This document shows, in pieces, positions 7,839 through 9,166 of a stretch of 38,221 nt of DNA. A model generated the notes under the pieces. That model had not been told where the DNA came from and ran no database searches. It worked only from the letters and a program-made list of their open reading frames with translations. Both the position numbers and the translations under genes were made by a program. This stretch comes from a virus (lineage: Duplodnaviria > Heunggongvirae > Uroviricota > Caudoviricetes), in the IMG/VR virus record IMGVR_UViG_2585427971_000006. One strand, written 5' to 3'. The stretch's first letter is position 1; each line of letters opens with the position of its first letter.

Positions 7839-8660
7839 ATGAAACTGGAAGATTTACCGAAATACTACTCCCCAAAATCCCCTGGCCTGACCGATGCATC
7901 GGCCTCAACGTCAAAAGATGCGCTGAGTATCACTGATGTGATGGCCGCGCAGGGCATGACACAGAATCGGGCTGAGATGGGTTTTTCTGCGTTCCTGGGG
8001 AAAATGGGCATCAGTATGAATGACAGGGCGCGGGCAACAGAATTACTGGCAGATTATGCACTCAGTCGGTGCGATCGTGTGGCGGCGTTGAGAAAACTTC
8101 CGGCAGAAATAAAACCGGTAGTGATGCGCATTATGGCTTCGTACGCTTTTGAGGATTATGCCCGCAGCGTAGCGAGTAAAAAGCAGTGCCCTTGTTGCTA
8201 TGGGGAAAAATTTATTGAAAGCGTAGTTTTTACAAACAAGGTCCAGTATCCGGATGGTAAGCCGCCGGTATGGGCAAAGTGTACGAAAGGTGTGTATTCG
8301 TCTTACTGGGAAGAATGGAAAAAAGTCAAGGAAGTGGTAAAAGTTGCCTGTCCGGAGTGTGGCGGAAAGGGTGAGGTTTCCACCGCCTGTAAGGATTGCC
8401 GTGGGCGTGGTGTCGCCATTCATCGTGAAGAGTCGGTAAAACGTGGTATGCCTGTTATCAGAGACTGCCAGCGTTGTGGTGGTCGTGGCTATGAAAGACT
8501 ACCATCAACGGAGGCATTTAATGCTATATGCGAGGTGACAAACCAGATAACACGCGCGTCATGGGAAAAAACAGTTAAGAAATTCTATGATGCGCTGGTG
8601 ACCCGGTTTGATATTGAAGAAGCATGGGCTGAGCGGCAGTTAAAAAAGGTAACTAGGTAA
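7839..8660 (+). CDS. late-gene antiterminator Q-like protein with Cys-rich zinc-binding repeats (273 aa)
   Basis: Immediately upstream of a promoter plus short terminated leader (PR'/tR'-like) and the lysis region; repeats CPECGGKGE, CKDCRGRG, CQRCGGRG; assignment mainly positional. Confidence 0.55.
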   Translation: MKLEDLPKYYSPKSPGLTDASASTSKDALSITDVMAAQGMTQNRAEMGFSAFLGKMGISMNDRARATELLADYALSRCDRVAALRKLPAEIKPVVMRIMASYAFEDYARSVASKKQCPCCYGEKFIESVVFTNKVQYPDGKPPVWAKCTKGVYSSYWEEWKKVKEVVKVACPECGGKGEVSTACKDCRGRGVAIHREESVKRGMPVIRDCQRCGGRGYERLPSTEAFNAICEVTNQITRASWEKTVKKFYDALVTRFDIEEAWAERQLKKVTR

Positions 8661-8665
8661 CAAGG

Positions 8666-8693
8666 TTGATTTTTCCGGAATCTGTGGTAAATT
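8666..8693 (+). promoter_or_regulatory. PR'-like late promoter
   Basis: TTGATT (8666-8671), 16-nt spacer, TAAATT (8688-8693), directly after the Q-like gene. Confidence 0.4.
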
Positions 8694-8742
8694 CGTCATA
8701 ACAATGGGCTTTTTATGCCTGACGTTAGAAGAGTTTCTACAA

Positions 8743-8766
8743 CCCGCCGCCGAGCGGGTTTTTTAT
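8743..8766 (+). terminator. tR'-like intrinsic terminator
   Basis: CCCGCCGCCGAGCGGG hairpin followed by TTTTTTAT, about 50 nt downstream of the predicted late promoter. Confidence 0.55.
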
Positions 8767-8803
8767 TGCGGAATTAATTACGGACCGTTATTATTCTGCT
8801 CCC

Positions 8804-8879
8804 GGCCCTTTAGCTCAGTGGTGAGAGCGAGCGACTCATAATCGCCAGGTCGCTGGTTCAAATCCAGCAAGGGCCACCA
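8804..8879 (+). tRNA. tRNA with anticodon CAU (Ile2/ileX-like or Met)
   Basis: 76 nt GGCCCTTTAGCTCAGTGGTGAGAGCGAGCGACTCATAATCGCCAGGTCGCTGGTTCAAATCCAGCAAGGGCCACCA; 7-bp acceptor stem, TPsiC loop GGTTCAAATCC, anticodon loop CTCATAA; resembles E. coli ileX from memory. Confidence 0.85.
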
Positions 8880-8979
8880 TCACAAACCGCCATTAGCTTA
8901 TCAGGAAGAGCAGACGACACGATAACAGGGTTGTTGGTGCGGGGGCGGGTCCCCGATGGCGGTCCATTATCGGTATTCA

Positions 8980-9053
8980 GCGTTGTTAGCTCAGCCGGAC
9001 AGAGCAATTGCCTTCTAAGCAATCGGTCACTGGTTCGAATCCAGTACAGCGCG
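8980..9053 (+). tRNA. tRNA-Arg (anticodon UCU)
   Basis: GCGTTGTTAGCTCAGCCGGACAGAGCAATTGCCTTCTAAGCAATCGGTCACTGGTTCGAATCCAGTACAGCGCG; acceptor stem pairs, anticodon loop CTTCTAA, TPsiC loop GGTTCGAATCC, CCA not encoded. Confidence 0.85.
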
Positions 9054-9166
9054 CTATATTCATTCTTCCAGATTCCTTCCGGCAGAGCCTTATACTGAAA
9101 TATACCTGGCTCAGGATATTGTTGAAAATATTTTATGTTTGTCAAAAATAAAAGTTCTGTTAAGTA

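Follow-up and report, generated by a model that had tools for sequence, protein, structure and literature searches.

The question raised by this locus is whether the DNA that follows its Q-like gene has, as the sequence-only reading had proposed, the layout of Stx-converting phages, in which ileZ/argN-type tRNA genes lie between Q and the toxin genes. We analysed the whole stretch of 38,221 nucleotides of Caudoviricetes DNA (hereafter the window), and each of the elements that this reading had listed was found in its place. Region 8660-9060 is an ordinary late-gene control region in a lambda-like prophage of E. coli ST131, and it very probably represents the join between two mosaic modules, namely a lambda-type late control unit and a tRNA cassette. 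The likeness to Stx-converting phages holds for the order of the elements, the homology of the tRNA block and the skeleton of the flanks, but not for Q, pR' and tR', which are not 933W-like, nor for the toxin, which is absent.

Sequence comparison identified a prophage of EC958 that is 100% identical across the region, and in this identical sequence RefSeq/PGAP already annotates tRNA-Ile and tRNA-Arg. The late order is Q, promoter, short terminated leader, tRNAs, cargo and lysis genes (Table 1), with the lysis and structural genes lying downstream on the same strand as Q. The major capsid gene is broken in the present prophage copy, and selection on late functions may therefore already be relaxed. 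A literature search found no transcript or transcription-start data for EC958 or the present prophage.

Table 1. Features from the Q gene to the first lysis gene (positions in the window)
Feature	Position	Strand	Evidence
Q antiterminator, lambda Q family, QuuQ/YdfT-like	7839..8660	+	Pfam, PDB and PHROG matches
Late promoter pR'	8666..8693	+	Sequence reading; alignment with lambda and 13 Q-relative loci
Predicted transcription start and sigma-70-dependent pause element, AACAAT then GGG	8700..8708	+	Anchored alignment
Predicted short terminated leader RNA, about 65 nt	8700..8766	+	Fold; relatives' leaders
Intrinsic terminator tR'	8741..8766	+	Hairpin and T-run
Candidate tRNA-cassette promoter	8766..8794	+	Conservation; homology boundary at 8764
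tRNA-Ile2 (ileZ), anticodon CAU (to be lysidinylated), reads ATA, CCA encoded	8804..8879	+	ARAGORN, Rfam, PGAP
Decayed argN (psi-argN)	8887..8966	+	Alignment with intact argN and with phiP27 and mEp460, which carry the same relic
tRNA-Arg, argO-like, anticodon UCU, reads AGA/AGG	8980..9057	+	ARAGORN (8980-9054), Rfam, alignment
Small gene in the position of stx in Stx phages	9194..9520	+	PHROG 2873, E 6.6e-70
DUF3927/TciB-like 43-residue peptide	9556..9687	+	PGAP; PHROG 1470, E 7.8e-13
STnc100-family sRNA, PasD relative	9753..9942	+	Rfam RF02076, 132.4 bits (threshold 47)
IraM-family anti-adaptor gene, antisense to the late transcript	9968..10303	-	NCBIfam NF007393, E 6e-47, above cut-off; PGAP
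DUF1737 ORF, 5' remnant of nanS-p/yjhS esterase gene	10548..10751	+	Pfam DUF1737
Class II (phage 21 S type) holin, first lysis gene	11059..11274	+	Pfam Phage_holin_2_1, E 3.7e-32; PGAP

The Q gene and its late promoter are of the lambda/QuuQ type

The open reading frame that ends directly before the promoter is indeed Q-like. It matches the Pfam family Antiterm (PF03589, E 1.6e-54), has an additional DnaJ_CXXCXGXG match and belongs to PHROG 127 ('anti-termination protein Q-like'). Compared with lambda Q (PDB 7ubm, E 9e-40; lambda Q is also found as PDB 4mo1), residues 1-113 and 182-273 align with residues 1-113 and 116-207 of the lambda protein, whereas residues 114-181 are an insertion of about 68 residues, a CxxC (DnaJ-like) zinc module, which sets the present Q apart from lambda Q. 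The same architecture with the CxxC insertion is found in QuuQ (YdfT) of Qin and its Enterobacteriaceae relatives; identity to QuuQ of Qin is approximately 40%, and cspA-type elements follow in Qin, where tRNAs follow here.

The promoter proposed at 8666-8693 is present as well and begins 6 nt past the stop codon of Q. It comprises the -35 hexamer TTGATT (8666-8671), a spacer of 16 rather than 17 nt and the -10 hexamer TAAATT (8688-8693), which is that of lambda pR', and the spacer ends in TGG, such that an extended -10 (TGn motif) with TG at 8685-8686 results. The sequence AACAATGGG lies at 8700-8708, at the same spacing from the -10 element as AACGAT GGG in lambda; the -10 element, the 6-nt gap and AACAATGGG reproduce the arrangement of lambda pR' with its sigma-70 pause element. 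An anchored alignment with lambda and 13 relative loci, whose Q proteins are 40-98% identical (14 loci including the present one), revealed a shared, lambda-like layout of TTGnnn, 16-17 nt, TAnnnT, 6 nt, AAYRATGGG and, 54-71 nt further on, a hairpin with a T-run. Alignment positions A46, A47, A50, T51, G53 and G54 were invariant across the 14 loci. The composite pattern TANNNT-N6-AAYRATRGG had a single match in 38 kb, at 8688, where 0.02 would be expected by chance. The present pause element reads AACAAT, with A where nearly all relatives carry G (AACGAT), and the sigma-70 pause that this element would cause is predicted by analogy with lambda. A generic consensus promoter scan called neither pR' nor the candidate promoter of the tRNA cassette, both of which have weak -35 hexamers; pR' was missed because only 8 of its 12 positions match.

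The likeness to lambda extends from a homologous Q through a promoter right after it, TAAATT and the 6-nt gap to the -10-like element with GGG, to the intrinsic terminator that comes next and the lysis genes downstream. The differences, apart from the zinc module, are the 16-nt spacer with its extended -10 TG, the sequence of that spacer (TTTCCGGAATCTGTGG), which is only loosely like the lambda spacer (TATTGAATAAAATTGGG) and unlike the lambda Q-binding site, so that the Q-binding element here is putative, the leader of roughly 65 nt compared to 194 nt in lambda, and the tRNAs and cargo that separate tR' from the holin gene by about 2.3 kb. Judged by their sequences, Q and its promoter are of the lambda/QuuQ type and not of the 933W type; by megablast, the Q/pR'/tR' of 933W-type phages are unrelated to the present upstream module.

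A predicted short leader ends at an intrinsic terminator

The expectation of a short leader with a terminator at 8743-8766 agrees with the hairpin at 8741-8760 and its T-run. The hairpin has 7 bp, 5 of them G-C, with the stem AACCCGC/GCGGGTT and the 6-nt loop CGCCGA, and is followed by a tail with a T6 run to 8764 and ATT. At 13 of the 14 Q-relative loci, the exception being L007, a GC-rich hairpin with a T-run occupies the same place. An intrinsic terminator was found in every relative with the pR' signature. The leaders of the relatives are 54-71 nt long (that of L006 as measured from the alignment), and the QuuQ relatives share with the present locus the short leader, AACGATGGGC..CGTT and the terminator 54-71 nt from the start. 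In the fold of the predicted leader (-18.2 kcal/mol, z -1.6), a middle hairpin stands between a hairpin at the 5' end and that of the terminator. Over the 14 loci, 93.8% of the cells of the 5' hairpin were paired, compared to 32-43% for slid controls; shuffles were equally good, and a covariation test found no pair changed on both sides among these loci.

Early termination of transcription shortly after a Q gene gives rise to the small RNAs StxS in Stx phages and IsrK in Gifsy-1 (PMC7547250; PMC4825925). The present leader resembles both in its predicted origin, a short transcript that starts at a constitutive promoter behind Q and is soon terminated, but shares no sequence similarity with the Stx-phage leader, which is 258 nt long (PMC7547250). 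We rejected an assignment to IsrK (RF01394), for which the leader scored 13.3 bits (threshold 50) and the leaders of the relatives gave no match, as well as to other Rfam families, for which only sub-threshold, terminator-driven matches were obtained (Trp_leader, 25.5 bits). A StxS-like pairing with the rpoS 5' UTR was likewise discarded: the best pairing had -27.2 kcal/mol, shuffles averaged -24.3 (sd 2.7), and 13% of them were equal or better.

There is a slim chance that the leader at 8700-8766 serves ST131 lysogens as a constitutive trans-acting sRNA, similar to StxS or IsrK in kind but with another sequence and other targets. If so, the conservation of its first 27 nt among the Q relatives and lambda would reflect an RNA function in addition to the DNA-level pause signal, and the leader would stand beside further regulators directed at the host, namely the STnc100-family sRNA and the RpoS-stabilising homologue of IraM.

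The tRNA block is a separate module that probably carries its own promoter

Comparing 8660-9060 with the 933W-type Q-tRNA region, as the sequence-only reading had suggested, splits the region in two. Megablast found no match between 8660-8763 and any Stx phage; matches begin at 8764, and from there to 9060 the sequence is 88-89% identical to Stx2 phages and 93% identical to phiP27. By this sequence comparison, the tRNA block (8764-9060) is a separate mosaic module that is shared with Stx phages. Both modules occur together in Escherichia phage mEp460_ev081, which is 99.3% identical over all of 8660-9060, including the leader, both tRNAs and the argN relic, and also resembles the present phage in its Q; it differs in that its argO keeps CCA and in that the cargo after the tRNAs is partly different. 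Moreover, tRNAs downstream of Q have been described as general in lambdoid phages and not specific to Stx phages (PMC3636060).

At the very start of the shared block lies a candidate promoter, with TTGCGG (8766-8771), a 17-nt spacer and TATTAT (8789-8794), which ends 9 nt before the first tRNA. The arrangement TTGC(G/A)G-17-TATTAT is conserved in mEp460, phiP27 and Stx2a_WGPS8, and for a Stx2a phage, a primary transcription start that lies downstream of tR' and upstream of stx2 is reported to drive the tRNAs (PMC7547250). Given that the cassette has a conserved promoter-like site of its own, its tRNAs are probably also made in lysogens, and this site together with the primary start in the Stx2a phage suggests that they are probably not under Q control alone.

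The alternative, which follows from the earlier view of the locus, is that the tRNAs lack a promoter of their own and are expressed solely within the Q-dependent late transcript. This would fit the position of the cassette on the late strand, 38 nt past tR', the poor -35 hexamer TTGCGG of the candidate promoter, which the scan left uncalled, and the relative L020 (Entomohabitans), in which a tRNA-Arg(TCT) follows tR' without an obvious -10 element. We nevertheless consider it unlikely, since the arrangement TTGC(G/A)G-17-TATTAT has been conserved and the module in common with Stx phages starts exactly at this site.

The position of the toxin genes is occupied by other cargo

Examination of ORFs and of Rfam, PGAP, NCBIfam and PHROG assignments yielded no stx ORF after the tRNAs. 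The slot that stx takes in Stx phages instead holds a small gene, an sRNA and an IraM homologue. The small gene has no Pfam or NCBIfam match and is without PGAP annotation. The STnc100-type sRNA carries its own terminator (9912-9933), and this region matches DNA just 3' of stx2 in Stx phages; STnc100/PasD genes have been linked to PF03589 Q genes (bioRxiv 10.64898/2026.05.13.724894). Further downstream, the DUF1737 ORF shares 95.8% identity with the beginning of the yjhS gene of Stx1a phages and is annotated by PGAP as an incomplete pseudogene, and the nanS-p/yjhS esterase gene is the one that follows stx in Stx phages.

The sequence-only reading had also held that whatever follows the tRNAs is probably expressed under Q control at induction. 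By the lambda paradigm, the plus-strand features up to the holin gene lie in the late operon and would therefore be read by the Q-modified polymerase, so for these features the expectation is upheld by analogy; it does not extend to the IraM homologue on the opposite strand, and the tRNAs probably do not depend on Q alone.

The STnc100 element at 9753-9942, a terminated RNA, could itself be taken for the true late promoter and leader; the hairpin at 8741-8766 would then simply end the early (Q) transcript, and the 'promoter' after Q would be a product of chance. Its length of 190 nt is the size of lambda 6S RNA, its strong Rfam match ends in a strong terminator, its family is linked to PF03589 Q genes, and pR' was not called by the scan. 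We rejected this candidate and regard the reading as very improbable, given that the signature of a -10 element, a 6-nt gap and AACGATGGG is found directly after Q in lambda and 13 relatives, most of these 13 relatives lack STnc100 within 2.5 kb, and the Stx-phage copies lie just 3' of stx, far from their pR'.

Two tRNA genes flank a decayed argN

ARAGORN called exactly two tRNAs in the window, with anticodons CAT (8804-8879) and TCT (8980-9054), and the Rfam tRNA scores were 72.5 bits (CAU) and 68.0 bits (UCU) against a threshold of 29; together with PGAP, these calls agree with the two tRNAs and the anticodons that had been read from the sequence. Their designation as ileZ/argN-type holds for the first, which is 100% identical to ileZ; of argN only a relic is left, and the second tRNA is argO-like. 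In the literature that was covered, nothing on ileZ was found. The CAU tRNA is, by its sequence, a tRNA-Ile2 and not a tRNA-Met: it is identical to Stx2a_WGPS8 ileZ at 76/76 positions and to K-12 ileX tRNA-Ile(CAU) at 68/76, and its changes relative to ileX are compensatory, including a compensated 6-67 pair.

The apparent 'spacer' of 100 nt between the two tRNAs contains the argN relic. Alignment with the intact argN of Stx2a_WGPS8 (anticodon TCG; UCG in RNA) showed that the relic keeps the acceptor stem, the D arm, the T stem and the TCCA end, that in place of the anticodon arm it has a stem with a 3-nt loop and that its T loop is one base shorter (6 nt). It still folds as a cloverleaf and was called by neither ARAGORN nor Rfam. 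A working tRNA of unusual form was considered and rejected on account of the 3-nt 'anticodon' loop, the 6-nt T loop and a divergence faster than that of its neighbours; from its sequence, we judge 8887-8966 to be a pseudogene.

Alignment of the second tRNA with Stx2a argO and K-12 argU revealed two differences from Stx2a argO, namely G for A at position 69 and T for C at position 75, the latter within the CCA end. The gene has a U4-G69 wobble pair and an encoded 3' end of CTA (9055-9057) rather than the CCA that is kept in argO of mEp460, phiP27 and Stx2a, which may reduce or abolish its function. Compared with the ileZ-argN-argO cluster of 933W-type Stx2 phages and phiP27, the present cassette is alike in ileZ (100% identical), argO (about 97%), order, spacing and the upstream promoter-like site, and differs in that no stx is present, argN is non-functional and argO ends in CTA. 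The Stx2e phage phiP27 has the same argN relic, and there is no intact argN in either. In the coding sequences of the prophage, ATA, AGA and AGG occur at 7.75, 7.07 and 5.91 codons per 1000, respectively, which is approximately 1.6 to 4 times the E. coli averages.

We regard it as very improbable that the tRNA sequences are the scar of an att site and not working phage genes. In favour of such a scar, tRNA genes are frequent integration sites of prophages, the Pas sRNA preprint explains tRNA matches close by in this manner (bioRxiv 10.64898/2026.05.13.724894), the middle one of the three tRNAs has decayed and CCA is missing from the third. Against it, the cassette sits in the interior of the prophage, between Q and the lysis genes and a long way from the prophage end near zinT, the two tRNAs that were called have their full length and intact cloverleaves, and ileZ has stayed 100% conserved whereas the argN relic diverges faster. 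In addition, the same cassette takes the same position in the phage genome records of mEp460_ev081, phiP27 and Stx2 phages.

Proposed mechanism and implications

In the preferred reading of two joined modules, the first (7839-8766) would consist of the Q gene followed by a constitutive pR' with transcription starting at around 8700. The polymerase, still carrying sigma-70, would pause at about +16/+17, a pause that is predicted from the resemblance of the first bases to be transcribed, AACAAT-GGG, to a -10 element. If Q is absent, transcription would stop at tR' and leave an RNA of about 65 nt. Upon induction, Q would bind between -35 and -10, load onto the paused polymerase and render it resistant to terminators, such that it could pass tR', the tRNA block and the cargo, including the STnc100 terminator, and reach the holin, lysozyme, Rz and structural genes. 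The second module (8764-9060), the ileZ/psi-argN/argO cassette, would probably use its own promoter to provide tRNAs in the lysogen and more of them after induction, and might thereby supply tRNA-Ile2 for ATA and tRNA-Arg(UCU) for AGA/AGG codons.

The value of these assignments lies mainly in correct annotation, with little beyond it. They add a late promoter, a pause element and a terminator that were previously unannotated in a prophage which hundreds of sequenced E. coli genomes carry, those of the pandemic ST131 clone among them, and provide a useful map of the positions of late-expressed cargo. They also caution against predicting a toxin from tRNAs that follow Q. The 'Stx-phage' tRNA cassette would be an independent module, made up of a promoter and tRNAs, that is placed by recombination behind Q/pR' units unrelated to each other.

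Source prophage and features of the region

The window is the reverse complement of positions 2137141-2175361 of Escherichia coli EC958, a lambdoid prophage adjoining zinT, from which it differs solely by one 133-bp gap. Its gene order runs from immunity and replication genes and hok/sok through a DUF968 gene, RusA, Q, the region under study (8660-9060) and the cargo to holin, lysozyme, Rz and iss/bor, followed by an HNH endonuclease, terminase, HK97-type head genes and lambda-type tail genes. The missing 133 bp (junction ~18530, within 18253-19337) split the HK97-type major capsid gene into two ORFs (18253-18546 and 18543-19337), which probably leaves this prophage copy unable to produce capsids. 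Directly past Rz, in antisense orientation, is the serum-survival lipoprotein gene iss/bor, a classic lambdoid moron position. The sok RNA adjoins hokD, and STnc490 is next to an IS200 transposase gene that has inserted between the lom and tail fibre genes. The stretch 7800-11300 is 100% identical in many E. coli ST131 chromosomes (including EC958, JJ1887 and O25b:H4), and at least 80% of it is present in 901 of 5426 complete genomes.

Features of the post-Q region and other annotated elements of the prophage
Feature	Position	Strand	Evidence or remark
DicF	175-226	-	Rfam, 69 bits
sok antitoxin RNA	5637-5808	+	Rfam, 107 bits
Antiterminator Q ORF	7839-8660	+	Pfam PF03589, E 1.6e-54
pR' -35, TTGATT	8666-8671	+	6 bases past Q stop codon
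pR' -10, TAAATT	8688-8693	+	16-nt spacer, 3' end TGG
tR' hairpin	8741-8760	+	7 bp, GC-rich, then TTTTTT
Candidate second promoter	8766-8771, 8789-8794	+	TTGCGG, 17 nt, TATTAT; 3' end 9 nt before ileZ
First tRNA, anticodon CAT	8804-8879	+	ARAGORN; Rfam 72.5 bits (threshold 29)
Second tRNA, anticodon TCT	8980-9054	+	ARAGORN; Rfam 68 bits (threshold 29)
Gene of PHROG 2873	9194-9520		Function not assigned
DUF3927/TciB-like peptide			In stx slot
STnc100-family sRNA	9753-9942	+	Rfam, 132 bits; own strong terminator; inside late operon
IraM-family anti-adaptor gene	9968-10303	-	NCBIfam, E 6e-47; antisense within late operon
DUF1737 ORF			Also in stx slot
iss/bor	12716-13009	-	
STnc490	32105-32228	+	Rfam, 146 bits

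A late promoter and leader resembling those of lambda

The sequence-only reading had placed a promoter (8666-8693), a terminator (8743-8766) and two tRNAs with anticodons CAU and UCU directly after a Q-like gene. Each of these was recovered at the position given, the tRNAs by ARAGORN, Rfam and PGAP, and the interpretation of the unit as Stx-phage-like was partly right. The unit is of a known kind in a much-sequenced prophage, with its tRNAs already annotated; EC958 carries it at 100% identity and phage mEp460_ev081 at 99.3%.

The Q protein matched lambda Q (PDB 7ubm, E 9e-40), its residues 1-113 and 182-273 aligning with lambda Q 1-113 and 116-207, while residues 114-181 form an inserted CxxC zinc module of ~68 residues that is absent from lambda Q. 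The extra CxxC pairs are DnaJ-like or anti-TRAP-like zinc motifs, and such an insert is common to QuuQ/YdfT-type Q proteins; ydfT/QuuQ of the Qin prophage was among the Q relatives at ~40% identity.

The late promoter, pR', matched 8 of 12 consensus positions and was not called by a generic promoter scan, and comparison was therefore needed to test its reality. We took 16 Q-relative loci (Q 40-98% identical) from species-representative genomes, plus lambda, and aligned the DNA past each Q stop codon by anchoring on the motif AAYRATRGG. In this anchored alignment, lambda, the window and 13 loci have one layout in common, consisting of a -35 TTGnnn, 16-17 nt, a -10 TAnnnT (TAAATT in lambda and the window alike), exactly 6 nt, AACGATGGG (in the window AACAATGGG) and, 54-71 nt past AACGATGGG, a GC-rich hairpin with a T-run. 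The layout recurred in one further locus, and another (L007) has a hairpin directly after Q but no promoter of this layout. The composite pattern TANNNT-N6-AAYRATRGG has a single occurrence in the window, at 8688 (0.02 expected by chance). In lambda pR', AACGAT at +1 to +6 is a -10-like element that causes sigma-70 holoenzyme to pause at +16/+17, letting Q load (work of the Roberts laboratory). By homology, the window's transcript would start at ~8700 and the terminated leader would measure ~65 nt.

By sequence comparison, Q, promoter and leader belong to the lambda type and not to the 933W type. Megablast of 8660-8763 found no match to any Stx phage, its only matches being mEp460_ev081 (99.3%) and a few vB_EcoS phages.

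Short transcripts made right after a Q gene, such as StxS and IsrK, can act as sRNAs (PMC7547250; PMC4825925). The leader is alike in origin but different in sequence, scoring 13.3 bits against the Rfam isrK model (threshold 50); its relatives' leaders had no isrK match either, and its pairing with the rpoS leader was no better than chance. Its first 23-27 nt (8700-8726) can form a 5' hairpin that is 94% paired across 14 loci, AACG with CGTT and GGGC with GYCY (AACGA..TCGTT in lambda), and none of the 14 loci has two-sided changes in these pairs. Conservation of the leader's 5' end may simply reflect a DNA-level pause signal.

Different cargo in the stx slot

No toxin gene was found among the genes of the stx slot, downstream of the tRNAs. 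The DUF1737 ORF matches, with 95.8% identity, the 5' end of the esterase gene yjhS/nanS-p in Stx1a phages, and the STnc100 region matches Stx2-phage DNA just 3' of stx2; thus an Stx-phage skeleton has been kept around different cargo. A 2026 preprint relates STnc100 to PasD sRNAs and ties both to PF03589 Q genes. STnc100 copies are likewise present past Q at the loci of E. albertii and Phytobacter.

On the lambda paradigm, Q-modified polymerase would transcribe the features on the plus strand as far as the holin (11059-11274). It would read the iraM homologue, which sits in AT-rich DNA, only antisense, and this gene would thus need its own promoter. IraM is an anti-adaptor shielding RpoS from RssB/ClpXP.

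A tRNA module common to Stx phages

Over the whole 38 kb ARAGORN called two tRNAs and no more, both already in the EC958 RefSeq/PGAP annotation as tRNA-Ile and tRNA-Arg. The tRNA block is a separate module common to Stx phages: by megablast, 289 phage records, the majority of them Stx2 phages, are similar to the window from 8764 to 9060 (88-89% identity in Stx2 phages; 93% in Stx2e phage phiP27). The candidate second promoter sits at the start of this module, and TTGC(G/A)G-17-TATTAT is kept in all four aligned sequences. In the Stx2a phage, a primary transcription start located between tR' and stx2 is reported to drive the tRNAs (PMC7547250). The window's tRNAs are therefore probably transcribed in the lysogenic state too, and not only upon induction.

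Of the ileZ/argN-type tRNAs that had been suggested, ileZ was borne out, but argN is only a relic and the second tRNA is argO-like. The first tRNA equals ileZ of Stx2a_WGPS8 at 76/76 positions and K-12 ileX, a tRNA-Ile(CAU) that reads ATA once lysidine-modified, at 68/76, with acceptor pair 6-67 altered on both sides; it is therefore tRNA-Ile2, not tRNA-Met. The second matches argO except at two positions. G replaces A69, creating a U4-G69 wobble pair, and T replaces C75, so that the gene end (9055-9057) reads CTA rather than CCA in this ST131 lineage, in keeping with PGAP's 74-nt annotation; argO of mEp460, phiP27 and the Stx2a phage keeps CCA. The CTA end may be repaired by the CCA-adding enzyme.

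The 100-nt stretch between the tRNAs is a pseudogene of argN (anticodon TCG), with which it aligns and which in Stx2 phages lies between ileZ and argO. The copies in the window, mEp460 and phiP27 retain the acceptor stem, D arm, T stem and TCCA end but have had the anticodon arm replaced; in the window the T loop is also one base short. The relic folds as a cloverleaf with a 3-nt loop where the anticodon loop belongs, and neither tRNA detector called it. It differs from phiP27 at ~7 positions, the flanking tRNAs at 1 to 3.

Codon use and tRNAs past Q elsewhere

The prophage coding sequences (EC958) use ATA, AGA and AGG at 7.75, 7.07 and 5.91 per 1000 codons, and its early, cargo and lysis genes use ATA at 9.9-16.9 and AGA at 11.3-11.7; E. 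coli averages are roughly 4-5 (ATA), 2-3 (AGA) and 1-2 (AGG). In the iraM homologue, 6 of 111 codons are ATA.

tRNAs directly past Q are general in lambdoid phages, e.g. SfI, Sf6, ST64T and P21 (PMC3636060). A distant relative, the Entomohabitans locus, has Q, pR', tR' and then tRNA-Arg(TCT), and in the E. albertii locus (Q 90% identical) a methylase gene precedes ileZ and an intact argN. DNA methylase genes lie upstream of the ileZ cassette in both E. albertii (L006 3897-4946) and phiP27 (L002 1942-3000); the E. albertii gene separates the cassette from the terminated leader. Together they mark one more point of insertion ahead of the tRNA module.
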